Notes under the pieces: model-generated
The model's input: the letters and a program-made list of their open reading frames with translations, nothing else
Told to the model about the DNA's origin: nothing
Database searches by the model: none
Position numbers and translations under genes: made by a program
Assembly: GCA_016177705.1 (NCBI GenBank)
Contig: JACOUT010000005.1
Span: forward strand, 222,374-286,373
Direction of reading: 5' to 3'
DNA: 64,000 nucleotides
Source: Deltaproteobacteria bacterium
Lineage (GTDB): Bacteria; Myxococcota; UBA727; VGSZ01
Shown here: one piece after another, positions 2,280-46,500 of the stretch
Position numbering within the stretch: position 1 is the first letter of the stretch
Layout: each line of letters starts with the position of its first letter

Positions 2280-2285
2280 CTTGTT

Positions 2286-2450
2286 GGAGGGTCTGATGCA
2301 GACCCTCCCCCGCAGCCGCCAGGGCCGCGAGCTTCGCTCGCTCGCCGAAGGGCGGCCGTGCGGCGCACGCGGGCACAGCCCGACGCGGGGCCCCCACCCA
2401 ACTCCGCTTCGCTGCGCTCGCGCCCGACTTCGAGCTCTCCGCCCGCGCAT
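2286..2450. repeat. intergenic repeat family, copy A (hairpin GGAGGGTCTGATGCAGACCCTCCC plus core GCACAGCCCGACGCGGGGCCCCCACCCAACTCC)
   Basis: Near-identical hairpin and core recur at 9545-9726 and partly at 45573-45690. Lies immediately 3' of the ALDH gene. Confidence 0.6.
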
Positions 2451-2757
2451 GGCGACGTTGCACGGGTTACGGGCAAGAGCAGGGGCATGGAGCTCAGCGA
2501 CGTTCGAAGATCCTCACGCCAGGCGCAGGCAAGCAGGCGGCGCATGCGCCGCTAAAAGTCGATTCCGTCGAGCCGCAACGCGCCGAAGTTGCCGTGCACC
2601 GGACGAACACTCCTGAGCCCGCCTCGCGCTTCCCCGCGAAGCGCACCACCACATTCTCCTGCCAGGTCGGCACAGGACTTGCGTAACGCGGTGCTGCGCG
2701 CGCGAACGCGCCTGCCCGACTGCGGTGCGCCAGTCGCCCACGCAAGAGGTTGCTTTC

Positions 2758-4410
2758 ATGTCCGACGGCGCCCCAGAAACGATCTCCGTGGCCACATGGG
2801 CGGAGCGCGCGCGCGTGCACCTTGGCGCGGGAAGCCTTCGCATCGTGACCGTCGCGAGCCAAGCCGACGTGCTGGCGTCGCTACGTCGCTCCGGCGCGCT
2901 CATCCCGCTCTCCAAGTCGGCGTACCCGGATAGCGACCTGCTACTGGTCCCACCAGAGCCCCGCATCGACGTCGAGCCGACGCGCTTCGTCACCTCCTCG
3001 AACGCGGCCGATGCGGGACCCCTGCATCGCTGGATGAGCGCAGCGTGGGTCGACAAGCGCTTCCGCCGCGCGCTCGCCGGAGCGAGCACGGGGCGCGAGC
3101 TTTGGGTGCTGCCCCTGCGCACGCGGGCGCTTGGCAGAGCCATCCCGACGGTGGTGGTCACCGAAGTCCCGTCGCTGGTGGCGACCTTGCTTCGGCTCGT
3201 GGAGCTCGACGACGACGTGCTGTCTGCCCCCGCCGGCACAGAGGTGGCGCGCTGCCTGGTCACCGAGGGTGGTCGCTCTCGCGGAGAGCGTTTCGTGTGC
3301 CTTGCCGTTGACGACCTCGAGCTCTGGTCGTCCGGGTGGTACTCGGGTCCGACCGCCATCGTCGAGGAGACGCTTGGCATTGCGTTCCCGTCATTGCTCG
3401 AGCGTGCTCCCGACGCCGGCTGTGCGGCCTCGGGGACCGTGAGTCTGTTCAATGCCCGAGGGAGGGCGCCGCGCACCGTCGCTTTCGTCGGCGGGGGGTG
3501 GGATGCACGCCTCGCAGCATCCTGGTCATCCTCGAGCGAGCGCGGCGGTACGTCGTCACTGATGAGCGACGGTCCGACGTGGTTTGCATCGGGCGACGGT
3601 TCGCTGCGATGCGGCACGCCGTTCCTCGGCTGCCGCCTTCCGCTGCGGTCGCTCCGACTGCCCGAGGCCGCGCCGGTCCTCGCGCGCCTGCGTTCGTCGC
3701 TGCTGTTCTCCAACGCCGCGCGCAGCGCACAGGGGATCCCATGGTGGGACGAGCGCGGGGACGCTCCGACGAGCCCCGAGGTGATCTGCTGGGACGGCAT
3801 GAGTGCGCGCCCTTCGCCTGCGCGCAGGGGCAGTCACACCGACGCAACCGTCATCGTCCCCTATGCCCTGCTCCAAGGCGACCAGGCCTCTCGCCTTTCG
3901 GCGGGCCTTCACGTCGACGCCGTGGTGTTCGTGATCGACGTCGCCGAGCCCGTCTCCGTGCTGCTCGAGCCGGCGTCCTTCAGCCAGGCCGTGGCGGTAG
4001 CGCTCGGCTTCGACGCCCTCACCGGCCATCTCCATGACCCGCTCGGGCTGCGCGCCTTCCCTGGCGACGTGGCCACCGGATTGCAGCGATGGCTCTCGCT
4101 CGGCGAACGCGTGGGTGTGCGCGCCTTCGTCTGGACCGTGCCTCGCTTCAGCTCGGGGCGCGGCGAGCAGCTCGCGGCACGCGAGATTGCGTCACTCATC
4201 GCCGCGGCGCTCGACGGGAACAAGGCTGCGCTCAGCTCCCCACTCGGCGCCGTCCACGCGGTGGCGCCCTACGGCCGTCCCGCGGAATCTGTGCGGGTCT
4301 TTGACGCTCTGTCCCGCGCGGTCGAGGAGCTCGGTTCGCGGTGCCCGCCTGCCCTCCGCCGGGCGCACGGCTCGCTCATCAGCGGTGCAGATTCTGCAGT
4401 AAACTCCTGA
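2758..4410 (+). CDS. hypothetical protein
   Basis: 551-aa ORF with strong GC3 bias. AAGAGG sits 9 nt upstream of the ATG at 2758. No recognisable domain. The opposite-strand ORF 2514-3800 is rejected. Confidence 0.55.
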   Translation: MSDGAPETISVATWAERARVHLGAGSLRIVTVASQADVLASLRRSGALIPLSKSAYPDSDLLLVPPEPRIDVEPTRFVTSSNAADAGPLHRWMSAAWVDKRFRRALAGASTGRELWVLPLRTRALGRAIPTVVVTEVPSLVATLLRLVELDDDVLSAPAGTEVARCLVTEGGRSRGERFVCLAVDDLELWSSGWYSGPTAIVEETLGIAFPSLLERAPDAGCAASGTVSLFNARGRAPRTVAFVGGGWDARLAASWSSSSERGGTSSLMSDGPTWFASGDGSLRCGTPFLGCRLPLRSLRLPEAAPVLARLRSSLLFSNAARSAQGIPWWDERGDAPTSPEVICWDGMSARPSPARRGSHTDATVIVPYALLQGDQASRLSAGLHVDAVVFVIDVAEPVSVLLEPASFSQAVAVALGFDALTGHLHDPLGLRAFPGDVATGLQRWLSLGERVGVRAFVWTVPRFSSGRGEQLAAREIASLIAAALDGNKAALSSPLGAVHAVAPYGRPAESVRVFDALSRAVEELGSRCPPALRRAHGSLISGADSAVNS

Positions 4411-4461
4411 GTCCTGCTGCTGAACTTGCACCAGATGCAGAATCGGCACTAGCGTCGCCGA

Positions 4462-5877
<1,416 letters not shown>

Positions 5878-5882
5878 TCTGC

Positions 5883-5898
5883 TGGCACGGGTGGTGCT
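5883..5898 (+). promoter_or_regulatory. candidate sigma-54 (-24/-12) promoter TGGCAC-N5-GTGCT
   Basis: TGGCACgggtgGTGCt has exact GG-N10-GC spacing. Located between the NtrC-like gene stop (5877) and the SulP start (5912). Confidence 0.35.
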
Positions 5899-5911
5899 TC
5901 GTCCGTCGACC

Positions 5912-7684
5912 ATGGACTCCAAACGCAAGCGCTTCGAAGTACCCCTGCCAAGGCTCGAGATCCGGCCGGCGGCGGCCCTGCGCCGCGCTTTCGCCAAGGG
6001 CTACGGGAAGGCGGAGTTGCGCGCCGACCTCATGGCGGGTCTCGTCGTTGGCGTGGTGGCGCTGCCCTTGGCGATGGCGCTGGCCATCGCGTCCGGCGTG
6101 CCCCCGCAACACGGGTTGTACACCGCGATCATCGGCGGCGGCCTGATTGCCCTCCTGGGCGGCTCGAAGACTCAGGTGTCGGGCCCGACCGCGGCCTTTG
6201 TCGTCATCCTGGTACCGATCACGATCAAGTTCGGCATCGCCGGGCTGTGCGTGGCCTCGCTCATGGCCGGCGTCATCCTCGTGGTCCTCGGCCTCCTGCG
6301 TTTGGGCCAGCTACTGCAATACGTGCCCTATCCGGTCACCACCGGGTTCACGGGAGGCATCGCCGTCGTCATCGCGACGCTGCAGGTGAAGGACTTCTTC
6401 GGCCTCACTGTCGAGCACATGCCCGAGCACTACCTCGAGCGCGTCGAGGCGCTCGCCGGGGCCGCGGCGACCGCGCGCTGGGGAGAATTCGCGATTGGCG
6501 CGTTCACGCTCGCGGCGCTACTGCTTTGGCCGAAGCTCACCACGAAAGTGCCAGCGCCGCTTGTCGCACTCACCCTGGCCACGGTGATCGCGGTGGCGCT
6601 CGGCAGGCTCATGCCGGGCTTCGAGGTTGCGACCATCGGCAGCCGCTTCACTTATCTCGTCGACGGCGAATTGCGCCACGGCATCCCACAAGCACCCCCG
6701 TTGCCGGTCCTGCCCTGGTTGCTTGCCGGTGCCGACGGCACTCCGCTCGGTCTCAGCTTCTCCACAATCCGCGCGTTGCTGCCCTCGGCGTTCGCCATTG
6801 CCATGCTCGGGGCCATCGAGTCGTTGCTGTCGGCGACCGTGGCCGACGGCATGGCCAGCACCAAGCACGACCCCAACGCGGAGCTGATCGCGCAGGGGGT
6901 GGGGAACATCGCCGCGCCCTTCTTCGGCGGCTTCGCCGCTACCGGGGCCATCGCGCGCACGGCGACCAACATCCGCTCCGGCGCCAAGTCTCCTATCGCG
7001 GCAATCACCCACGCCATCTTCATCCTGGTATCCGTGCTCCTGCTCGCGCCGCTCGTCTCGTACCTGCCCATGGCGTCGCTGGCGGCGCTGCTCTTGCTCG
7101 TCGCGTGGAACATGAGCGAGGTCAGACACTTCCTGCACACCTTGCGGGTGGCGCCGCGCAGCGACGTGTTCGTGCTGCTTGCGTGCTTCTCGCTGACCGT
7201 CCTCTTCGACATGGTCATTTCGGTGACCTTCGGCATCGTGCTCGCATCGCTCCTGTTCATGCGCCGCATGTCCGAGATCTCGGGCGCGCGAATGCTCGAG
7301 GAGAAGCACCATGAGCTTGACGAAGTCTTGCCACCCGGAGTGATGGTCTACGAGATCGCCGGTCCGCTGTTCTTTGGCGCGGCGCAGAAAGCGATGAGCT
7401 CACTGGAAACGACATCGACCAAGGCCAAGGTTGTGGTCTTCGACATCGAGGACGTGCCGGCCATCGACGCCACGGGCATGGTCAACTTCGAATCGGCCAT
7501 CGAGAGACTCCTGCACCAAAAGACCGCCGTCGTGGTCGCGGGTGCGCGACCGCAGCCCGCCGAGGTCCTCAAGAATGCTGGTATCGAGGCGCGCGACGGG
7601 CAGCTCATGTTCACCACCACCGTGCGAGAGGGCATCGAGCTCGCTCGCACCCTGGTCGGGCGCTCCGCCAGGTCCGCCGCATGA
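5912..7684 (+). CDS. SulP-family anion/sulfate permease with C-terminal STAS domain
   Basis: Conserved N-terminal block ADLMAGLVVGVVALPLAMALAIASGVPPQHGLYTAI, many TM helices, and a C-terminal STAS fold (VVFDIEDVPAIDATG). An alternative GTG start at 5864 overlaps the upstream gene. Confidence 0.85.
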   Translation: MDSKRKRFEVPLPRLEIRPAAALRRAFAKGYGKAELRADLMAGLVVGVVALPLAMALAIASGVPPQHGLYTAIIGGGLIALLGGSKTQVSGPTAAFVVILVPITIKFGIAGLCVASLMAGVILVVLGLLRLGQLLQYVPYPVTTGFTGGIAVVIATLQVKDFFGLTVEHMPEHYLERVEALAGAAATARWGEFAIGAFTLAALLLWPKLTTKVPAPLVALTLATVIAVALGRLMPGFEVATIGSRFTYLVDGELRHGIPQAPPLPVLPWLLAGADGTPLGLSFSTIRALLPSAFAIAMLGAIESLLSATVADGMASTKHDPNAELIAQGVGNIAAPFFGGFAATGAIARTATNIRSGAKSPIAAITHAIFILVSVLLLAPLVSYLPMASLAALLLLVAWNMSEVRHFLHTLRVAPRSDVFVLLACFSLTVLFDMVISVTFGIVLASLLFMRRMSEISGARMLEEKHHELDEVLPPGVMVYEIAGPLFFGAAQKAMSSLETTSTKAKVVVFDIEDVPAIDATGMVNFESAIERLLHQKTAVVVAGARPQPAEVLKNAGIEARDGQLMFTTTVREGIELARTLVGRSARSAA

Positions 7685-8493
7685 GCAGGAAGAACCACGC
7701 GTCCGATCCTACCTTGAAAGAGCGCCTCGCCTCGGGCCACGAGGTCGAGGATGACGCAGTCGATCGGCTGCTGCCGCCGTGGGTATCCGCGCTCTCGGAG
7801 GTGCACTGGACGCCGGTAGCGGTGGCAGCCGCCGCAGCCGCGTTTCTGACCGACGAGAGGCGGCAGTCGGCGCGGGTGCTCGACGTCGGCGCCGGCGCCG
7901 GCAAGTTCTGCGTGGTCGGCGCCGCCTCGACGGGAGCGCGCTTCGAGGGCGTCGAACGAAACCCCACGCTGGTGGGGGTCGCTACCTTGCTCGCGCGCGA
8001 CATCGGTGTCGACCGCGTACATTTCCATTGTGCCGCCATGGAGCAACTGGATTGGCAGAGCTACCACGGGCTCTACTTCTTCAATCCCTTCGGCGAGTAC
8101 TTCATCGAGGACGGCAGCAAGATCCTCGAGGGGCAGCCGCGTGGATGGCGAGCCTACGCCCACCAAGTTCGCACCGCGATCGCCAAGCTCTACCTGATGC
8201 CGACCGGCACGCGGGTGGCGACCTACCACGGTCTCGGCGCGAGCTTGCCGCCGGGTTTCGACCTCGTCGCAACCGAGCGCTTCGGCACGGGGATCCTGCG
8301 ATGCTACATTCGGCGCGACCCCCTCTCGATCGCTTCTCCGCATCCCCCGGAGGACTTCTTCGAGCGGCCCGGCATCTTCGAGGAGCCCACCGCGGTCCTT
8401 CGCCCAGCCTGGAACAACGACGGCGAAGCGGGAACGGACGCCGGGCATGGCCCGCCGCTCGCTTGCGACGAGGGCGAGCTCGAGCACGAATGA
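7681..8493 (+). CDS. class I SAM-dependent methyltransferase
   Basis: Motif I VLDVGAGAGKF. ATGA overlap with the SulP stop. GC3 somewhat lower than neighbouring genes. Confidence 0.6.
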   Translation: MSRKNHASDPTLKERLASGHEVEDDAVDRLLPPWVSALSEVHWTPVAVAAAAAAFLTDERRQSARVLDVGAGAGKFCVVGAASTGARFEGVERNPTLVGVATLLARDIGVDRVHFHCAAMEQLDWQSYHGLYFFNPFGEYFIEDGSKILEGQPRGWRAYAHQVRTAIAKLYLMPTGTRVATYHGLGASLPPGFDLVATERFGTGILRCYIRRDPLSIASPHPPEDFFERPGIFEEPTAVLRPAWNNDGEAGTDAGHGPPLACDEGELEHE

Positions 8494-9341
8494 GCCAACG
8501 AGCCGCGACTTTCGACGAGGTGCGTCAGGGGCGCTCGCTCGCCATTGTCGACAACGGCTGCTGCGCGCGCGGCGCAGGAGGAGCAGGTCGCGCGCGTCAT
8601 GCTCAACCTCGAGAGCAAACCAAGCGATCTACGTCTCTCGTTGCGGTCCTGCAGCCCGATGAGCGCGATGTACTTCTCGACGCCATGGCGGAAGGCCGCA
8701 CTGAGGCAGAGGCACGTCGCCAATGATGGCTCTTTGACTCGCGCGGTCTCGTGGTGTCGGCGCGACAGAACGGCTCCCTCGCGGGTCACAAGGCGAAGCT
8801 CGCGCACGAGCATGAGCCCGTTGCCACGCTGCTCGGCGCGGTCGAAGCGCCGCACCCCACCGCGCTGATCGGCACCTCGACGCAGGCGAACGCGTTTGAT
8901 GACGCAGTGCTCGCGCGCATGGCGGCCGAGAACGAGCGGCCCATTGTCTTCGCCTTGTCGAACCCAACTGCCGTGGCCGAGTGCGCGGCCGAGGGCGCGA
9001 CCCGGGCGACCCACGGCCGCGTGCTCTTTGCCAGCGGAAGCCCCTTCGCCCGGGTCAGCTTCGGCGGCCGAACCTTCGAGCCCGGGCAGGGCAACAACGT
9101 CGACATCTTTCTGGGCGTTGGCCTCAGAATACTGGCGGCGCGGAGCCATCTCGCTACCGACGAGATGTTCCTGGCTGCGGCCAAGGCGCTGGTGGTGGAG
9201 GTCGCTGACGACGATCTCGCAGTCGAGCGAATCTTGCCCAAGCTCTCGCGCCTGCGGGAGGTGTCGGTGCGAGTCGCTTGCAGGGTCGAGGAGGTTGCCT
9301 TCGCTCGAGGCATCGCCACCATCCCGAGGCCCGTGGACTAG
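8494..9341 (+). pseudogene. NAD(P)-malic enzyme gene remnant (C-terminal ~280 aa only, frameshifted, in-frame TGA at 8727)
   Basis: Residues from 8751 align with the malic-enzyme C-terminus (FALSNPT...ECAAE...ASGSPF...PGQGNNVDIFLGVGL). Upstream, EAEARRQ*WLFDSRGLV matches EEARKKIWLVDSKGL but is interrupted by a stop. The GAGGAG NAD-motif region is in another frame. The N-terminal ~300 codons are absent. Confidence 0.7.
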
Positions 9342-9544
9342 GATGCCGCGGCGCGTGCTCTCATGTGGTCTCCGAACTACCCCGACTGTCTTTCGATGGA
9401 TGGAGGTGGGGCCCCGACGGCCGGATCGTGAACGGGGCGCTTGGTTCGGCGCCGTCGACTCCGCGCCCGCGGGCGGCGTCGACGACTTGGCGAGTTGCCA
9501 CAGCGCGGTTCGAGATTCCTCACACCGGGCGCGCACGTTGTCTG

Positions 9545-9726
9545 GGAGGGTTCGATGCGGACCCTCCCCTGCGCACGCACAGCCCGACGCTGGTGCGGTG
9601 GGCTCGCCCGAATGGCCGTGAACCCTCCTCCGCGCGGGCACAGCCCGACGCGGGGCCCCAACCCAACTCCCGTCGCTGCGGCTCCTGCCTCGCTCCGCTC
9701 GGCCTCGTTCAGGTGGCGGAGGGCAG
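9545..9726. repeat. intergenic repeat family, copy B (hairpin GGGAGGGTTCGATGCGGACCCTCCC plus two CACAGCCCGACGC cores plus CGCTGCGGCTCCTGCCTCGCTCCGCTCGGCCTCGTTC tail)
   Basis: Shares the hairpin and core with copy A and the tail with copy C. Lies between convergent gene ends. Confidence 0.6.
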
Positions 9727-9761
9727 TTCGAAACCCGTCGTACCGGGCGCGCTCCGGCGAG

Positions 9762-10298
9762 CTACTTCTTGGCGGGTGCGGGCGCGGCGGGTGGCGGCGG
9801 CAGCAAGACAGCGTCGATCACGTGGATCAAGCCGTTCGACACCGGGATCGACGCGATCACGTTCGCGTCGTTGATCGTGACCTTGCCGTCCTTGGCGACG
9901 TGGATGGTGGTCTTGCCGCCGTTGGCCATGCCGAGCGTCTCGCCGTCCTTGAGCCACTTGAGCGGCAGGGCCGAGGTGGTCACGTGGTACTGGAGGATCT
10001 TGGCGAGGTCGTCCTTCTTCTCGGGCTTGAGCAGGCCCTCGACCGTGCCCTTGGGCAGCTTGTCGAATGCGGCGTTGGTCGGCGCGAACACCGTGAAGGG
10101 CCCCGGGTTCTTGAGCGACACCACCAAGTCGGCGGCCTTGACCGCGGTGACCAACGTCGTGTGATCAGGCGAGCCCGCCGCGGTGTCGACGACGTCTTTG
10201 GCGGTCGCCGCCTGCCCTTGCGCGAGCGCCGCGGCGGCGGCGAGCGCGAGCGGCGCGGCGGCGAGGAGGAGGAGGCGGGGCAGGGCGGCGCGGGTCAT
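9762..10298 (-). CDS. fasciclin (FAS1) domain secreted protein
   Basis: Signal peptide MTRAALPRLLLLAAAPLALAAAAALA. FAS1 motifs TVFAPTNAAF and VIDAVLLP. Confidence 0.8.
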   Translation of the reverse strand: MTRAALPRLLLLAAAPLALAAAAALAQGQAATAKDVVDTAAGSPDHTTLVTAVKAADLVVSLKNPGPFTVFAPTNAAFDKLPKGTVEGLLKPEKKDDLAKILQYHVTTSALPLKWLKDGETLGMANGGKTTIHVAKDGKVTINDANVIASIPVSNGLIHVIDAVLLPPPPAAPAPAKK

Positions 10299-10623
10299 GG
10301 CAGGGCTCCTTCGGGTCGAGTTCGGTGACCGGCGTCGACCGTTTGCATCCGTCGTGCGCAGTTGCGCCGCGTCCGGACGACGTGCCACGCGCTTCGAGGG
10401 GGCGACGCCGGCGCCAAATGCCCCACATCGTGCGCCCTGCTGCACACGATCGCGCCGCGCTTCTTGATGGCAGTCACCTTGTCATCGGCAGCGTGGCGCT
10501 CGAGAGGCCCGAGAAGATTGGCGTGTCCTACATTGGACCCAACTCCCCGACATAGCTGCGCCTTTTTCCCCCTGCCCCGATGCGTTTCGCGGATCTAGAC
10601 GAGCGCTTCGCTCGAGGTCCTCG

Positions 10624-11952
10624 ATGTCGCTGCTCACCGTCCGTCTCCCGATCGCCGGCCTGCCGGTCGCCCTGTTGGTCGCCCTCTTGGTCGCGCTGAG
10701 CACGTCGTGCCCGCAGACCATCGCCGTGCTCGGCTGTGAGTCGCCACGCGACTGCGACCCGGGCCAGCTCTGCGTCGACAACGCCTGCGTGGCCGCTGAC
10801 GCGGTGCCGTGCACCACCGACGGCGAGTGCAATGTGGCGAACGGCGAGATCTGTCTCGCCGGCATTTGCCAGGTGAGCGACGGGCCGCCGCCGGGTGGCT
10901 GCACGCAATCGTCGGAGTGCTCGATGACGCAGTTCTGCAACACCGCCACCGGGCTGTGCGCCGACCTGCCCGACGGCTGGTGCCGCCAGGAGAGCCAGTG
11001 CCCGGCCGAGCTGCCGACCTGTTCGGCGCAAAACGACAACGTGCCCGGTCGCTGCGTCGAGTGCGTCACGGCGGACGACTGTGGCGGCCAGGAGTGTGTG
11101 CACCCCGGCGTCTGCACCGACTACACCTGCCCGCCCAACAGTACGCCCATCGGCGAGGAGTGCCGCTGCAACTCGGGCTACGTCGACGACGGCGCCGGCG
11201 GCTGCCGGGTGCAGCCGGGCGAGGGCGAGGGCGAGGGTGAAGGCGAGGGTGAGCCGCCCGGCCCAGGGCCCGAGTGCGACGGCGCCGATCCGCTCGGCGG
11301 CCTGATGTGCATGATGTCCGGGCCGTACAACACCTGCGATCCGGCGGCCAACCAGTGCATCTGCGACGAGTTCACGCTGCTGCTCTCCTGCCTCTTCTCT
11401 GGCGCGCCGAACTTCCAGACCTGTTTGTGCGACGAGGCGCCCGCCGAGGGCGAGGGCGAGGGCGAGGGTGAGGGTGAAGGCGAAGGCGAAGGCGAGGGTG
11501 AGCTGCCCGGGGCGAACGAGAGCTGCGTGAGCGGCGGCGTCGCGGGCGAGTGCCTTGCCGGGCTCACCTGCGTCTACGTCGGCGATCCGCCGAGCGCCGG
11601 CTCCTGCAAGTACCCCTGCGATTTCAACTTCGACTGCCCCGCCGCGCTCACCTGCGTCTCCGGCTTGTTCGCCGACGGCTCGGGCTTCTGTGCCGACGAG
11701 CGCGCCCCCGGCGATAGCTGCAACGGCGACTTCTTCCACTCGTCGAACACCTGGATGGGCACCGACACCTTGTGCACGCTCGCGCCCTACGCGGACATGG
11801 CCGACAACCGTTGTGTCGCCGGCACGTGCCAAGAGGTGTGCGCGTACAACCCGGATCCGAACCCGGGCACGATTCGCGACTGCTTCAGCGGCACGTGCGG
11901 CGCGCTCGGCACCGTCTCGGGAATCGACGGGCAGGCAGCGATCTGCCAGTAG
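10624..11952 (+). CDS. secreted cysteine-rich repeat protein with two (Gly-Glu)n linkers
   Basis: Signal peptide and TM-like N-terminus. Many C-x-D-C-x-G-x-C-type modules. (GE)n stretches at 11218-11256 and 11446-11502. Confidence 0.7.
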   Translation: MSLLTVRLPIAGLPVALLVALLVALSTSCPQTIAVLGCESPRDCDPGQLCVDNACVAADAVPCTTDGECNVANGEICLAGICQVSDGPPPGGCTQSSECSMTQFCNTATGLCADLPDGWCRQESQCPAELPTCSAQNDNVPGRCVECVTADDCGGQECVHPGVCTDYTCPPNSTPIGEECRCNSGYVDDGAGGCRVQPGEGEGEGEGEGEPPGPGPECDGADPLGGLMCMMSGPYNTCDPAANQCICDEFTLLLSCLFSGAPNFQTCLCDEAPAEGEGEGEGEGEGEGEGEGELPGANESCVSGGVAGECLAGLTCVYVGDPPSAGSCKYPCDFNFDCPAALTCVSGLFADGSGFCADERAPGDSCNGDFFHSSNTWMGTDTLCTLAPYADMADNRCVAGTCQEVCAYNPDPNPGTIRDCFSGTCGALGTVSGIDGQAAICQ

Positions 11953-38998: not shown

Positions 38999-40384
38999 AT
39001 GCGGTCCGCATGGCTGCTCCTCGCCTCCCTGTCGCTCCTGGCAGCGGGGGATGGCTGCCCCCAGGCGCCGGTGGCGCTCGCTTGTGATGATGACGGCGAG
39101 TGCCCGTCGGGAGCCGTCTGCGGCCCAGGCGGCATTTGCGTCGCGGTCGCGGAAGGTGAGGGAGAGGGCGAGGGCGAAGGCGAGGGTGAAGGAGAAGGCG
39201 AGGGTGAAGGAGAAGGCGAGGGTGAAGGAGAAGGCGAGGGTGAAGGCGAGGGTGAAGGGGAGGGCGAGGGTGAAGGGGAGGGCGAGGGTGAGGGTGAGGG
39301 TGAGGGCGAGGGTGAGGTAGATCCGTTTCCCTTCACGCCAGCCCACTTCGTCCCGAGTGACTATCTGCCTGGTCCGTCGGTCGTGGTGAGCTGTGGGCTC
39401 GACTTCAACACTGACCTTGGCCAGTTCTTCGGCACCTGCGCGCCCACCGGCGTGAGCGTTGCGCTCATCAGTCAGGCCGGCGCGCCACAGATCCGCGTGC
39501 TGGCCGTTGACGACTTGGAGATCCGACCCGGCGCCCGCCTGAACGTCTTTGGCTCGCGCGCGCTCTTGATCGCCGCCTACAGCGGCCCCGTGATCATCGA
39601 CGGCACGCTCGACATCTCGGCAGCCCAGGGCTTGGCCGGCGCGGGCGCGAGCTCCGTCACCTGCCAGGCGCACGGCGGCTCAGGCGCCGACGGCGGCAGC
39701 GCCGGCAGTGGTGACCCTGCGGGCGCCGGTGGCGGTGGCGGCGGCTTCGGTGACGCGGGCGGCAGCGGCGGCGGTGCGGTCGGCGTGTCGTCGGCGAGCG
39801 GCGGCAGCAGCGCGCCCGCAGAGGGCAGGCTGCGCGGTGGCTGCGCCGGAGGGCGCGGCGGTCGCACGTTCGGCTTCAACGGCGCGGGCGGCAACGGCGG
39901 CGGCGCCGTCGAGATCTCGGCTGCGGGCGTGATCCGCATCGGCGGCGGCGGATCGGTGCTCGCGCGCGGCGGCGGCGGCCGCGGCGGTGACGACACCCGC
40001 GGCGGCGGCGGCGGCGGCGGCGGCAGCGGGGGCGCGATCCAGCTCGAGGCGTCGACGCTCGACCTGCAGGGCACTCTGGCGGCGACGGGCGGCAGCGGCG
40101 GCGGTGGCAGCAAGGACCAGGACGAGCGCGGCGCAGACGGCGCTGCGGGCTCGATCGACGGCACCGCGGCGTCGGGTGGCAGCGCTGCCTCCAGCTCCGC
40201 CGGCGACGGCGGCACCGGCAGCGGCCTGGTCGGCGAGAGCAAGAACGGCGGCGCGGGCACCAGCACGAACGGCGCGGGCGGCGGTGGCGGCGGCGGCGGC
40301 GGACAGATCGAGCTGCGCGTGCTCGGCGGCTGTACGCGCGACCCCGGGGCCATCGTCGACCCCGCCGTCAGCTCCTGCCCCTGA
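38999..40384 (+). CDS. Cys-rich / (Gly-Glu)~26 linker / Gly-rich beta-helix-like lipoprotein (paralog 2)
   Basis: Signal peptide/lipobox MRSAWLLLASLSLLAAGDGC. (GE)n spans ~39153-39310. The Gly-rich domain is homologous to the protein at 24901-26247. Confidence 0.7.
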   Translation: MRSAWLLLASLSLLAAGDGCPQAPVALACDDDGECPSGAVCGPGGICVAVAEGEGEGEGEGEGEGEGEGEGEGEGEGEGEGEGEGEGEGEGEGEGEGEGEGEGEGEVDPFPFTPAHFVPSDYLPGPSVVVSCGLDFNTDLGQFFGTCAPTGVSVALISQAGAPQIRVLAVDDLEIRPGARLNVFGSRALLIAAYSGPVIIDGTLDISAAQGLAGAGASSVTCQAHGGSGADGGSAGSGDPAGAGGGGGGFGDAGGSGGGAVGVSSASGGSSAPAEGRLRGGCAGGRGGRTFGFNGAGGNGGGAVEISAAGVIRIGGGGSVLARGGGGRGGDDTRGGGGGGGGSGGAIQLEASTLDLQGTLAATGGSGGGGSKDQDERGADGAAGSIDGTAASGGSAASSSAGDGGTGSGLVGESKNGGAGTSTNGAGGGGGGGGGQIELRVLGGCTRDPGAIVDPAVSSCP

Positions 40385-41357: not shown

Positions 41358-42428
41358 ATGAGCAGCATGCGCGTCGGCGGGGTGGACATCGAGGAGCTGA
41401 TGAGCCGGGTGGGCGGCGCCATGGACCGCGCGGCGCGGGCGCGCGAGGCGGCCATCAAGGCCGCCGAGCAGGCCAAGGCCGCCGAGCAGTCGGGCGCGGC
41501 CGGTCAAGGGTGTGGGTGCAAGGGGACCGGCGGCGCCGCGCAGAGCGGCGAGCAGGAGCGCACGGCGCAGCGAGCGCCGGTCGACCCGGCGGTGCAGTCG
41601 GGCGCGCGCGCCTGCGCGTCGGGCAGCGAGCAGGTGCGGCGCAACAGCGTCGAGCCGGCGCCGCGCACGCGCGAGCAAACGCTGCGCCGCGGTGACAGCG
41701 GCGAGCAGGTGCGCGAGCTGCAGCGCGGCCTCAACACGCGCGGCGCCGAGCCCAAGCTCGTCGAGGACGGGCGCTTCGGGCCCAAGACCGAGCGTGCGGT
41801 CAAGCGCTTCCAGAAGGAGCAGGGCATCCCCGGCAACGGCGTGGCCGGGCCAAAGACGCGCGAGGCGCTCGGCAAGAGCGAGCGGCCGACCGTTCCGACG
41901 CGCCCCGAGCGTCCCACGGGCCCGGAGCGCCCGACCGGCCCCGAGCGTCCGACCGGCCCCGAGCGTCCGACCGGCCCCGAGCGCCCCGGCACTCAGCGCT
42001 CGGTCAAAGGCTTCCGCGAGATCAATGAGCAGAAGCTGAAGGACATGCTGCCGCCGCAGGCCAAGCACCTGGCGCGTTCGTTCATCGACGCGGGCCGGCG
42101 CCACAACGTCGACCCGGCGGTGCTCGCCGCCATCTCGAAGCACGAGACCGGCAACTTCACCTCGAGCGCGTTTCGCAACAAGAACAACGCTATGGGCGTC
42201 TCGAACGCGCGCGGGCCCATCCAGATGGCCTCGCACGAGGCGTCGATCGACAAGATGGCCAAGCTGCTCGGCTCGACGTCGTCCGGGCCCTACAGGAACG
42301 CGCGCTCCATCGCGGAGATCGGCCGCATCTACGCGCCCATCGGCGCCGGCAACGACCCGACCGGGCTCAACAACCATTGGGTCACCGGCGTCGCGCGCTT
42401 CGCCGACCAGTTCGCGCGCGCGCGCTGA
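41358..42428 (+). CDS. peptidoglycan-binding (PG_binding_1) protein with C-terminal glucosaminidase-like domain and (ERPTGP)5 repeat
   Basis: GGAGG sits 7 nt upstream of the ATG. PG_binding_1 motif in LRRGDSGEQVRELQRGLN...GRFGPKTERAVKRFQ. The C-terminal domain assignment (HETGNF...NNAMGV) is tentative. Confidence 0.6.
   Translation: MSSMRVGGVDIEELMSRVGGAMDRAARAREAAIKAAEQAKAAEQSGAAGQGCGCKGTGGAAQSGEQERTAQRAPVDPAVQSGARACASGSEQVRRNSVEPAPRTREQTLRRGDSGEQVRELQRGLNTRGAEPKLVEDGRFGPKTERAVKRFQKEQGIPGNGVAGPKTREALGKSERPTVPTRPERPTGPERPTGPERPTGPERPTGPERPGTQRSVKGFREINEQKLKDMLPPQAKHLARSFIDAGRRHNVDPAVLAAISKHETGNFTSSAFRNKNNAMGVSNARGPIQMASHEASIDKMAKLLGSTSSGPYRNARSIAEIGRIYAPIGAGNDPTGLNNHWVTGVARFADQFARAR
41893..41985 (+). 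repeat. 18-bp tandem repeat x5 encoding (ERPTGP)5
   Basis: cccgagcgtccgaccggc units seen directly within the CDS 41358-42428. Confidence 0.8.
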
Positions 42429-44248: not shown

Positions 44249-44817
44249 GCGGCGAGGTGCACGTGCTGCACGTGGTGCCGGGCGGCACCGCGGCGCCGAG
44301 CCCGCCGCCGGTGGCGGTCGACGAGCTGTTCGCGGCGCACGCGCCCTTCCTGGTGCGCACGCTCGAGCGCCTGACCGGCAATCGGGCGCAAGCGGAGGAT
44401 CTGGCACAGGAGGCCTTCCTGGTGGCGCACCGTCGGCGCGCCGACCTGCGCGCCGACGGCAACCCGCGCGCCTGGCTCTACCGCGTCGCCATGAACCTGC
44501 TGCACAAGAGCCGCCGCAGCTTCGCGCGCGAGCTGTTGTTCCTCGGACGCGTGGTCGGAGAGCGCGCCACGCAGGCGCGCGCCGGCGAGCCCGAGCAGGC
44601 GACGCTCGAACGCGAGCGCGCACGGCGCGTGCGAGCGGCCGTGGCCAAGCTGCCGCTGGTGCACCGCGAGGTGTTCGTGCTCTTCGAGCTCGAGGGTCTG
44701 TCGGGCGCCGACATCGCGCTCATGCTCGACGTGCCGGTGGCGACGGTGTGGACGCGCCTGCACCGCGCGCGCGAGGCGTTTCGCGCCACGTGGGACAAGA
44801 CGGAGGCGGCCACATGA
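44245..44817 (+). CDS. ECF-type RNA polymerase sigma-70 family factor
   Basis: Region 2 (EDLAQEAFLVAHRR...AWLYRVAMN) and region 4 (SGADIALMLDVPVATVWTRLHRAR). Confidence 0.8.
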   Translation: MSGEVHVLHVVPGGTAAPSPPPVAVDELFAAHAPFLVRTLERLTGNRAQAEDLAQEAFLVAHRRRADLRADGNPRAWLYRVAMNLLHKSRRSFARELLFLGRVVGERATQARAGEPEQATLERERARRVRAAVAKLPLVHREVFVLFELEGLSGADIALMLDVPVATVWTRLHRAREAFRATWDKTEAAT

Positions 44818-45515
44818 GCGACCCGCGACGCCTGTTCGACGATCCCGAAGCGCCTGCCGAGCTGCGCGCCGCGCTCGCCGCCGAGCGGCACCTGGGCGAG
44901 CAGTACGACCCCACGGCGCTCGGCGCGCGCGTCGCGCAGGCGGTGGCGGCGGGCGCGCCCCTCGGCGCCGGCGCGCTCGGCACCAGCTGGTGGCTTGGAC
45001 CCAAGGCGATGCTCGCCACCGCGGTGGTGAGCGCCGCGCTCGGCGCCGGCGGGCATGCGCTCTACACGGAGTACGCGGCTGCGCCCGCGGCGCCGGTCGC
45101 GCCGACGACGGTGGTGGCGCCCGCACCGGCGGCGCCGGCCGTCAGCGCGCCGCCTGCAGAGGCATTCGCAGCGCCGCCGCCGCCCGCCAAGGCCCCGACC
45201 GTCGCGCAGTCAACGCCGCGCGCGCCGCGTGACGCGCGCGCGCCGGGCGCGCTCGCCGACGAGCTGTCGCTCTACGAACGCGGCGAGGCGGCGCTGGTGG
45301 AGGGCCACTACGACATCGCGGTGCGCGAGCTCGAGCGCTACCTCGGCGAGTTCCCGCGCGGCACGCTGCGCGCGGAGGCGGAGCTGGCGCTGGTGCAGGC
45401 GTTCGCCAAGAGCGGCCGCTGCGAGCGGGCGGACGCGCGGGCGCGGCGCGCGGCGGCGGGGGCGCACCGCGAGGCGCTGCTGGCGGCGGCGGCGCGCTGT
45501 GGCGTCGAGCGGTAG
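44814..45515 (+). CDS. anti-sigma factor (single TM, C-terminal TPR-like region)
   Basis: ATGA overlap with the sigma gene. TM helix ATAVVSAALGAGGHALY and a Pro/Ala-rich linker. Confidence 0.6.
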   Translation: MSDPRRLFDDPEAPAELRAALAAERHLGEQYDPTALGARVAQAVAAGAPLGAGALGTSWWLGPKAMLATAVVSAALGAGGHALYTEYAAAPAAPVAPTTVVAPAPAAPAVSAPPAEAFAAPPPPAKAPTVAQSTPRAPRDARAPGALADELSLYERGEAALVEGHYDIAVRELERYLGEFPRGTLRAEAELALVQAFAKSGRCERADARARRAAAGAHREALLAAAARCGVER

Positions 45516-45572
45516 GGAGCGGCGTTCGAATCGCACGGGGCGCGTTCCGTTCTCATTGCGCGTGCCGTGGGC

Positions 45573-45690
45573 GGGGAGAAGCCCAGGGTTTCTCCCCGCC
45601 GCGGGCGGAGGCCGACGACGTCTCCCTCCCTTCCTCCGTCGCTGCGGCTCCTGCCTCCCTCCGTTCGGCCTCGTTCGGGGGCGGAGGTGG
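45573..45690. repeat. intergenic repeat family, copy C (hairpin GGGGAGAAGCCCAGGGTTTCTCCCC plus CGTCGCTGCGGCTCCTGCCTCCCTCCGTTCGGCCTCGTTC tail)
   Basis: The tail is near-identical to copy B (9665-9712). Lies between convergent genes. Confidence 0.55.
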
Positions 45691-45800
45691 TGGCGACGTG
45701 TTCTTGAGCGTGTCGGGTTTGGGCGTTGCGCTGCTCGCTCCGCGGGCGACGCGCGACTCCGCTCGCCTCGCGGCTTGCTCGCGGCGTTCTCGGCGCTCCG

Positions 45801-46334
45801 CTAGCCCATCATCTGCAGCAGCGTCGTGGTCGTTCGCCAGTTGCGGATCGTCATCTCTTTGTAGATCGGCAACGACACCACGCGCCCCAGCTTGCTCTGC
45901 GTCGCCTTGCTGATCAGGCGCGAGAAGTACAGCACGCCCGCGCCGGCGTGCGCCTGGTCGACGCCCTCCTTCATCGGGACCTTCGCGATCGCGGCGGCCG
46001 CAGTGAGCGGCGCGTTCAGGAAGATCACGTCGTAGCGGTACCTTGTCGACTCCTTGCCGAAGCCCCTGGGCGCGCGCGCCACGATCGCCGCCATCTCCAC
46101 CTGGCTCCGCAGGACCACCTTGGTTTGGCAGTCGAACGTGGCGTGGAGCGCCGCCTCCAGGCGCCGCGCGATCTCCGCTGGCTTCGCCCGAGCGGAGAAG
46201 ACGACGTTTCCGCTCTGGATATACGTCGCGACGTCCTTCAACCCCTGCTCCTCGAAGCAGGCCTTGAGGTCCGTCATCCTGATGATGTGCTTCCCGCCGA
46301 CGTTGATGCCGCGGATCAAAGCGACGTATTTCAC
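45801..46334 (-). CDS. DUF1697 family protein
   Basis: N-terminus VKYVALIRGINVGGKHIIRMTDLKACFEEQGLKDVATYIQSGNVVF. GTG start with GGAG upstream. Confidence 0.65.
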   Translation of the reverse strand: MKYVALIRGINVGGKHIIRMTDLKACFEEQGLKDVATYIQSGNVVFSARAKPAEIARRLEAALHATFDCQTKVVLRSQVEMAAIVARAPRGFGKESTRYRYDVIFLNAPLTAAAAIAKVPMKEGVDQAHAGAGVLYFSRLISKATQSKLGRVVSLPIYKEMTIRNWRTTTTLLQMMG

Positions 46335-46500
46335 GCGTCGACCATACTCCCGCTGCCGTGCTCGTCGGCGGCTGGTCGACGACAGCCTCGACCCGCGCGC
46401 GAGGACGAGCATACCCGTCGGATACTGGAAGAACGCGTGCGCGGCCGGATCCCAGAGGGATCCGGCCGCGCACGCTCGGTCAGGAAGAGCGCGTCGACGC

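Follow-up and report, generated by a model that had tools for sequence, protein, structure and literature searches.

A mosaic non-coding repeat past stop codons in a Myxococcota genome, with two copies at the ends of a 7.5-kb gene block

Three copies of a non-coding repeat, here named A, B and C, are found in a 64-kb stretch of a Myxococcota genome (contig JACOUT010000005.1, positions 222,374 to 286,373; hereafter the window). They form a real, modular, interspersed repeat family, the copies of which are built from the modules H, K and T with a further motif, X, at their edges. The repeat occurs at non-orthologous sites, has further copies outside the window, and bounds a 7.5-kb block of genes. 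Most likely it is a small mobile or recombination-prone element and not a chance similarity. Movement of the element itself, and the use of X as a preferred target or junction, are suggested by the way in which the sequences are arranged.

The sequence read consisted of the window (71% G+C; proteins MBI1946164-MBI1946199), which is part of a 362-kb contig of a metagenome-assembled genome labelled 'Deltaproteobacteria bacterium', and of short contigs from relatives and assemblies. Expected numbers of matches were taken from shuffles of the window, and hairpin strength was expressed as fold energy and as z relative to shuffles. The copies extend over 2282-2450 (A), 9499-9754 (B) and 45518-45700 (C).

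When the whole window was compared with itself, the pairs A-B and B-C were the two top dispersed repeats, and A, B and C were the sole dispersed non-coding repeats; the remaining matches were coding low-complexity (GAGGGY)n tracts or local palindromes. In blastn, A (2280-2460) aligned with B at 74% identity over 148 nt (E 1e-18); for B and C the identity was 78.6% over 98 nt (E 8e-17), and no other in-window match rose above a background of 34 bits. The hairpin pattern of module H is present as GGAGGGTCTGATGCAGACCCTCC at 2286-2308 and as GGAGGGTTCGATGCGGACCCTCC at 9545-9567, that is, twice, with one further match to the self-complement, compared with 0.01 expected. A 14-mer of module K, GCACAGCCCGACGC, is found at 2373, 9577 and 9638 (one in A, two in B), a count of three which none of 100 shuffles reached and for which the expectation is 0.25. 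Core and linker together are 97-100% identical between A and B over 38-39 nt, and an exact 27-nt core is common to the two inside units that are otherwise about 74% identical. A 36-nt pattern of the tail T, with its two variable positions made degenerate, is matched exactly at 9675-9710 and 45641-45676, where 0 matches are expected. The A/B hairpin, the A/B core (twice in B) and the B/C tail had been quoted in an earlier, sequence-only reading and are indeed present where it placed them. The blastn identities and the shuffle controls also speak against a chance similarity of GC-rich DNA, which it had named as a possible refutation. An nhmmer profile built from the copies gave no fourth copy in the window and, over about 1 Mb of fetched loci, none beyond the loci of the L033, L031, L022 and L086 type described below.

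A short stretch at 10534-10560 had been taken for a relic of the repeat. This was rejected, since the common stretch is only about 11 nt (ACCCAACTCCC) and since it sits inside a divergent-promoter block (TCCTACATYGGACCCAACYCCCCGACAT) that is also conserved in a relative without the repeat (contig L137). The block, at 10515-10600, reads TCCTACATYGGACCCAACYCCCCGACAT ... TTTCCCCCTGC.CCGATGCGTT in the divergent promoter region of the fasciclin and DUF7107 genes; it is common to the window and L137, and has an ACCCAACYCCC string, as in the repeat linker.

The features of the copies are listed below, together with those of L033, a locus in another Myxococcota genome.

2282..2313, plus strand: module H of copy A, hairpin GGAGGGTCTG-ATG-CAGACCCTCC with short flanks, 3-7 nt past the ALDH stop (2277-2279); 32/32 identical to L033
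2314..2367, plus strand: internal segment of copy A, degenerate K1 with the spacer GCTCGCCGAAGGGCGGCCGTG common with B (long form), from alignments
2368..2405, plus strand: module K and linker of copy A, CGCGGGCACAGCCCGACGCGGGGCCCCC followed by C-rich ACCCAACTCC; consensus matched at 100% over 38 nt, L033 at 35/35
2406..2450, plus strand: diverged tail T' of copy A, weakly aligned to T of B and C; no stable hairpin
2492..2530, plus strand: X to the right of A, GCTCAGCGACGTTCGAAGATCCTCACGCCAGGCGCAGGC; nhmmer E 1e-7; partial inverted partner at 2604-2618
9499..9538, plus strand: X to the left of B, CACAGCGCGGTTCGAGATTCCTCACACCGGGCGCGCACGT; nhmmer E 2.8e-10
9544..9568, plus strand: module H of copy B, 11-bp hairpin
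9570..9629, plus strand: first core K1 of copy B (GCACAGCCCGACGC at 9577-9590), spacer, and degenerate 3' arm of a second H (GAACCCTCCTCC), from alignment
9630..9670, plus strand: module K2 and linker CCCCAACCCAACTCC of copy B; hairpin CCGCGCGGGC-ACA-GCCCGaCGCGG, -22.4 kcal/mol, z -3.0
9671..9725, plus strand: tail T of copy B, pyrimidine-rich, with 3' partner GGCGGAGGGCAG; 39/39 identical to L033
9716..9754, plus strand: X to the right of B; nhmmer E 6.6e-8; ends about 8 nt before the fasciclin stop (9762-9764, minus strand)
45518..45547, plus strand: tentative, degenerate X to the left of C, seen by eye (weak nhmmer E 4); 2 nt past the stop of gene 44814-45515
45570..45600, plus strand: hairpin H' of copy C, from inverted repeat and fold; 4-nt indel at its foot in a second strain
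45600..45636, plus strand: diverged core K' of copy C, CGCGGGCGGAGGCCGACGAC, with C/T-rich linker, from alignments; no stable fold
45636..45700, plus strand: tail T of copy C, long hairpin closed by GGGGGCGGAGGTGGTGGCGACG; -36.5 kcal/mol, z -2.5
2280..9761, no strand: block bounded by A and B, 7.5 kb, not in L137
L033 2726-2764, 3461-3502, 3616-3656 and 4490-4530: X copies of L033, co-oriented

On the plus strand the unit reads X, H, K, linker, T, X, where H, K and T are three mutually unrelated sequences that keep one orientation throughout. The hairpin H has a 10-bp stem in A (-18.6 kcal/mol, z -5.1) and an 11-bp stem in B (-20.5 kcal/mol, z -3.4); between the two stems there is one compensatory pair, U-A to C-G, and one change from C-G to U.G, which is valid on the plus strand only. 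In copy C the same position is occupied by a hairpin of other sequence, H', with 14-15 bp (-33.8 kcal/mol, z -5.6), as the sequence-only reading had noticed, and in locus L031 of a Myxococcales genome by a hairpin that again differs in sequence (z -1.9). At 2286-2308, 9544-9568 and L033 3507-3530, H contains GGAGG and, 5 nt on, an ATG in the loop, an arrangement like a Shine-Dalgarno sequence with a start codon, and an overlapping TGATG is formed at the loop in A and L033. A start of a small open reading frame (ORF) at this place was rejected, since the downstream frames differ in every copy.

Module K is CGCGGGCACAGCCCGACGCGGGGCCCC and is identical in A, the second copy of B, L033 and L031. 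Its core sequence, CGGGCACAGCCCGACGCGGGGCCCC, is built of two small palindromes, CGGGC-ACA-GCCCG and GGGGCCCC, and it folds well only with the outer CCGCG/CGCGG pairing, as in B (z -3.0) and L033 (whole-unit fold). In A and L031 this outer stem is lost and the K sequence is still 100% conserved; therefore, K is conserved as sequence and not as structure. The linker, CCCCCACCCAACYCC, is C-rich and T is pyrimidine-rich, so that on the plus strand the C-over-G skew of K, linker and T amounts to +0.16 to +0.29, compared with a 95th percentile of 0.19 for the window. A convincing hairpin of T is found in C only (z -2.5), K' and T' are without a stable fold, and the folds of whole units are no better than those of shuffles (z -0.2 to -2.1).

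The copies differ in how the modules are combined. Copy B holds a tandem duplication, [H-K1][degenerate H-K2], and since A carries the inter-K spacer of B, both can be regarded as long forms; L033 is a compact short form with about 115 nt between its X motifs. Overall, module duplication, a 54-nt insertion and tail replacement are seen among the copies.

The X motif, GCGGTTCGAAAYTCCTC...CCGGGCGCGC, has the consensus GCGGTTCGAAAYTCCTCnnnCCGGGCGCGC. It stands on both sides of H-K-T in B and L033, after A and, weakly, before C, always on the same strand as H-K-T, and it is found at junctions of genes, of H-K-T units and of duplicated segments. For several X copies, a partial inverted partner follows 60-100 nt downstream. 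Within one unit the left and right X are only 65-80% alike; the H-K-T modules are 95-100% alike across genomes. The X motif, the tandem [H-K] duplication of B and the bracketing of the block by A and B had all escaped the sequence-only reading. Three other interpretations of X or its surroundings were considered and rejected. X copies vary with a three-base period and can be read on the minus strand as ...RAR-x-EE-x-RTAL or on the plus strand as GSKLLKPGA; a coding nature was discarded since the surrounding ORFs are not protein-like, the frames differ between copies and the codon usage does not fit. The string GGTTCGAA is not a tRNA T-arm or an att remnant, since T-stem pairing is absent. An IS91-type GTTC/CTTG target at the left junction is present in L033 and A, in inconsistent register, and not in B.

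Each copy lies in non-coding DNA 3' of a gene, as had been proposed, and that gene is on the copy's own strand. Copy A is located between ALDH (696-2279, plus) and a PEPCK-like gene (2725-4410, plus). A minus-strand ORF at 2514-3800 was discarded as the gene to the right of A because of its wrong codon-position G+C pattern. Copy B is located between a C-terminal malic-enzyme remnant (8751-9341, plus) and a fasciclin gene (9762-10298, minus), and copy C between the gene 44814-45515 (plus), itself after an ECF sigma factor gene, and a DUF1697 gene (45801-46334, minus). The unit is co-oriented with its upstream gene in five of five cases (A, B, C, L033 and L031), and it starts 2-50 nt past the upstream stop, or 160 nt past it in B. 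A scan found no sigma-70 promoter at the repeat units. In view of the strict co-orientation, it is plausible that the unit may serve the upstream gene at its transcript end, with the H hairpin followed by a C-rich, rut-like tract.

An 18-mer of K was used as an exact-match query against 185,579 species representatives (one genome per species) and then against metagenomes. The first scan returned 36 loci, nearly all of them chance coding matches, with three real ones (L033, L031 and L022); the second returned 49, to which L086, on a contig of the Joint Genome Institute (JGI), was the sole real addition, and it carries the L033 sequence. In L033, from the Myxococcota metagenome-assembled genome (MAG) SJ783, a full compact X-H-K-T-X unit is present. 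Over 92 nt it has 95.7% identity to B, and it matches A at 32/32 and 35/35 positions, with 95-100% identity to the window copies module by module. The locus is unrelated to the window sites and encodes an RHS/LTD protein, a DUF433-DUF5615 pair and DUF1697; the last is the sole protein family common to it and the window (55% identical), and nothing else matches. The unit is near-identical and stands at a non-orthologous site. The identities in L033 are themselves a mosaic, H being that of A and T that of B, with K between them, which implies exchange among copies. Locus L031, from a Myxococcales MAG, has its other hairpin followed by K and linker. In L022 (2263-2424), a locus of a Myxococcales MAG from Lake Baikal, tRNA-Thr(CGT) and a hairpin are followed by K units of 16 nt (GCACAGCCYGACGCGG), three in tandem and reversed in orientation. 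Viral collections, searched with K, T, H and X patterns, gave chance matches only, and the plasmid collection gave no match. Among 5.8 billion proteins one translated frame of the element had no match, and for a six-frame chimera of it no match was seen among the candidates listed.

Two strains of the window organism (99.5% identical) differ at seven positions, three of which fall inside the C unit of about 215 nt. Therefore, strong purifying selection is unlikely to be the cause of the identity across genomes, and recent transfer or conversion from a common 'master' copy fits better.

Evidence for copies outside the window comes from Logan assemblies, which are independent assemblies (k=31) of the same organism. 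Contigs that match the window at 100% identity stop at 2312 (L001 and L002), 9704 (L135) and 9679 (L130), which are the edges of the stretches common with the L033 short form (2282-2313 and 9675-9713); the breaks thus fall inside H of A and T of B. Since a k=31 de Bruijn graph breaks at shared 31-mers, at least one further copy is present in the sample outside the window. A short form that combines the H of A with K and with the T of B would be in line with this. The diverged copy C was assembled through (L127, L133 and L134).

The relation of A and B to the genes between them becomes apparent when the window is compared with L137. In this relative, ALDH has 88% nucleotide identity to that of the window, and fasciclin and its neighbour 78%, and the ALDH-fasciclin gap of 829 nt contains one unrelated 204-aa gene and no H, K or T modules. 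Homology ends at the ALDH stop and returns at the fasciclin stop, and the intervening 7.5 kb of the window opens with A and closes with B, in direct orientation. It contains genes for a PEPCK-like protein, a sigma-54 activator, a SulP transporter and a methyltransferase, and the malic-enzyme remnant, with no recombinase among them and no compositional anomaly. With three units and about 45 intergenic regions, it is unlikely, with a probability of the order of 5%, that the second block boundary fell at another unit by chance. The native 3' end of ALDH, which is conserved in L137, is X-like and has the same spacing to H, which is only suggestive. In the malic-enzyme gene, which is broken at 8630-8750, the 51 nt of 8630-8680 are inverted and the N-terminal half is absent. 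The arrangement is confirmed by the independent Logan contig L135, and the N-terminal coding sequence continues in strain SRR22387838 (99.7% identical; L136 3090-3392).

In L033, four co-oriented X lie within 1.8 kb, each 8-42 nt past a plus-strand stop or directly after T, and mark off a toxin-antitoxin pair, an H-K-T unit and the DUF433'-DUF1697 segment. A segmental duplication is also present at this locus (2731-2948 and 3625-3836; 219 nt, 76%), and its left edge lies exactly between GG and TT of X. The duplication spans the upstream region and the 5' part of DUF433, the second copy being truncated and followed by DUF1697. As to DUF1697 itself, the window gene (45807-46336) and L128 2870-3399 are 93% identical in nucleotides, the homology stops at the ORF ends and the neighbours differ. 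L033 also has DUF1697 beside the repeat, and DUF1697 may move as a single gene. A DUF1697 homologue with 72% identity carries the name of a Polyangia bacterium.

The explanation that we favour, with somewhat better than even confidence, is that a Polyangia-like Myxococcota genome carries A, B and C as copies of an interspersed mosaic repeat, non-coding and lineage-restricted, which would be placed past stop codons at X, would have arisen by copying or recombination, and would supply homology at block ends. In such a scheme, the short form of SJ783 appears as the source copy, A and B are diverged long forms with an internal [K-spacer] duplication, and C is an old, diverged short form. Copies would land directly past stop codons, along the direction of the upstream gene and at or beside X-type sequences, and would probably be spread by a trans-acting enzyme or by gene conversion between copies. 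Once settled, the copies could act as portable homology, and A and B as direct terminal repeats for the gain of a gene block.

A number of observations weigh against this explanation. The approximately 35 window genes are all ordinary chromosomal genes and include no transposase, no integrase and no REP-associated tyrosine transposase (RAYT; REP stands for repetitive extragenic palindromic sequence). The ends of the unit carry direct X and not terminal inverted repeats (TIRs), no short duplicated flank that could be a target-site duplication (TSD) is seen at the A, B and L033 junctions, and no pair of empty and filled sites was seen among the compared loci. No genome among the 185,579 species representatives has more than one exact 18-mer core, so the repeat is not a high-copy family anywhere sampled; the window has only three copies, and 26 kb of two relatives have none. 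Where the window has the block, L137 carries another gene, and the change may have been an insertion or a replacement. Finally, a scan for U-tract (intrinsic) terminators gave 0 sites at A, B and C, where a C-rich tract comes after the hairpins.

Part of the same evidence can be read in terms of site-specific recombination, in which X and/or K would be crossover sites of an att- or cassette-like system, H-K-T units and gene blocks would be its cassettes, and A and B would be island ends like attL and attR. Direct repeats at the ends of a block that is not in the relative, an exact 27-nt core within units of about 74% identity, the four co-oriented X of L033 around the toxin-antitoxin pair, H-K-T and the DUF1697 segment, the left edge of the duplication inside X, and the X-like 3' end of ALDH with its same spacing to H are all consistent with it. 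However, no recombinase is encoded in the block, the window or the L033 locus, the attC architecture is absent, and the block genes are large and of housekeeping type instead of small cassettes. A and B are moreover colinear over their full length, without chimeric B-O-P' and P-O-B' arms, and are better described as colinear long forms than as an attL/attR chimera. On balance, site-specific recombination seems rather unlikely. The more particular proposal that X, and perhaps K, would be the crossover of an undescribed Myxococcota cassette system which shuffles blocks, DUF1697, toxin-antitoxin pairs and H-K-T units, its recombinase being encoded elsewhere, and which would leave blocks bounded by direct repeats such as 2280-9761, is judged decidedly unlikely.

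It is also unlikely that the copies are paralogous RNAs and not mobile DNA, that is, a conserved structured RNA under selection, such as an element of the 3' untranslated region (3'-UTR) or a 3'-derived small RNA. Such an RNA would explain the strict co-orientation with the upstream gene, the compensatory pair and the plus-strand-only U.G of H, the hairpins of other sequence that C and L031 have at this place, and the very high conservation of the short form across genomes. The sequence-only reading had likewise offered an RNA motif as one possibility, and for hairpin H this stands; it does not for K, which is conserved in sequence even where its outer stem is lost (A and L031), for K' and T', which are unfolded, for T, which folds well only in C, or for whole units, which fold like shuffles. 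Furthermore, no Rfam family is matched, module duplication, a 54-nt insertion and tail replacement occur among the copies, the strain differences concentrate in C, and the host loci are unrelated.

Passive leftovers of segmental duplication and rearrangement, patchily homogenised by gene conversion and without a dedicated element or function, would be in line with the rearranged malic-enzyme remnant that B adjoins, with the local segmental duplication of L033, and with the DUF1697 gene that is 93% identical to that of a relative between unrelated flanks. Yet the same 115-nt unit is present without flanking homology at unrelated loci of two genomes, and K alone in two more; the placement past stop codons and the orientation are consistent, and only non-coding sequence is repeated. 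This explanation is therefore considered improbable. Chance similarity, for which the 71% G+C of the window and its many weak GC-rich pseudo-repeats might speak, is refuted for practical purposes by E values of 1e-17 to 1e-18 over a background of 34 bits or less, by shuffle expectations of 0-0.25 and by an independent, near-identical copy in another genome.

Some other repetitive sequences in the window should be mentioned. (GAGGGY)n tracts that encode Gly-Glu repeats are found in at least three genes (11217-11525, 39116-39345 and 25928-26112, the last on the complement), and Logan contig L130 ends within such a tract at 11246. A palindrome of 41 nt that is near-perfect, CGTGCGCGGCCGGATCCC-aga-GGGATCCGGCCGCGCACG, lies at 46435-46475 in the gap that separates DUF1697 from the upstream gene on the minus strand; it probably forms a terminator hairpin that lacks a U tract. 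At 41894-41986, a tandem repeat with an 18-nt period (TCCGACCGGCCCCGAGCG, about five copies) lies in a peptidoglycan-binding/glucosaminidase gene.

To our knowledge, interspersed non-coding repeats have hardly been described in Myxococcota, the large and highly rearranged genomes of which are poorly understood. The repeat described here marks gene ends, breaks short-read assemblies, is near-unchanged across distinct genomes and brackets a lineage-specific 7.5-kb block; as a defined mosaic element, it would offer a handle on the gain and loss of gene blocks in this phylum and might be used as a marker for strain typing or for the diagnosis of assembly errors. Should X be a recombination site, this would be the sign of a new system of gene shuffling, and if H-K-T is a portable transcript-end module, it would be informative on how transcription ends in high-GC bacteria without U-tract terminators.

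As to classification, Rfam gave only one tRNA in the whole window at the gathering threshold, and with the limit relaxed to E<=10 the sequences around A, B, C and L033 gave only sub-threshold matches of 19.5 bits or less, read as chance. Literature searches by sequence and by topic found no matching family either, so the statement that the repeat could not be assigned to a named family is upheld. It had also been called REP/MITE-like, where MITE stands for miniature inverted-repeat transposable element. The modular, interspersed and non-coding nature is borne out by the present results, and the hallmarks of MITEs and the doublet or mosaic organisation of REPs are absent. Like MITEs, the copies are small, non-coding, non-autonomous intergenic repeats, and two MITE copies can bracket and mobilise a gene block. 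Unlike MITEs, they have no TIRs and no TSD, and the unit ends are direct repeats of X.

Integron attC sites, including Vibrio cholerae repeats (VCRs) and clusters of attC sites lacking integrases (CALINs), are similar in being species-specific repeats past genes in one orientation with a GTT-containing junction motif, and in L033 small genes are delimited, among them a toxin-antitoxin pair. However, X is only about 35-40 nt long and lacks complementary outer R''/R' boxes, and inspection showed no imperfect palindrome that reaches 57 nt and carries complementary RYYYAAC/GTTRRRY boxes at its outer ends. X holds GTTCGAA, GTTCGAT or GTTAGAA in its inner arm, with candidate partner boxes 33-56 nt off and imperfect pairing. 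No integron integrase is encoded in the window or the 4.7-kb L033 locus, and the genes of the window block are large and housekeeping-type in contrast to those of attC cassettes.

The resemblance to REPs and bacterial interspersed mosaic elements (BIMEs) of Enterobacteria and Pseudomonas is closer. REP/BIME sequences act as stabilisers of mRNA 3' ends, as attenuators and as recombination substrates, and REPs typically exceed 100 copies per genome. Both they and the window repeat consist of short GC-rich imperfect palindromes that are extragenic and lie just past genes (23-25 nt for H and about 26 nt for K, past stop codons), and both form mosaic, non-autonomous units. A passage of PMC2817692 describes BIMEs as one REP in alternating orientations. 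The window repeat, in contrast, is composed of three unrelated modules in a single orientation, with neither a REPIN-type doublet of REPs nor an alternation of strands; no GTAG-type 5' tetranucleotide was noted in it, no RAYT is found among the approximately 35 window genes, and its copy number is apparently low.

The pneumococcal BOX element, which in Streptococcus pneumoniae has the structure boxA-boxB(n)-boxC, is compared here by description only. It differs in that the window repeat has no sequence relation to it, belongs to another phylum, is flanked by direct X and is strictly co-oriented with its upstream gene. The two are alike in being modular with a variable middle module (K is present once or twice, and as three tandem 16-nt units in L022), intergenic, hairpin-forming and without coding capacity or a known dedicated transposase. 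The best reading is that the repeat is a lineage-restricted mosaic without a match to a described family, and that it is closest in behaviour to REP/BIME and to pneumococcal BOX.

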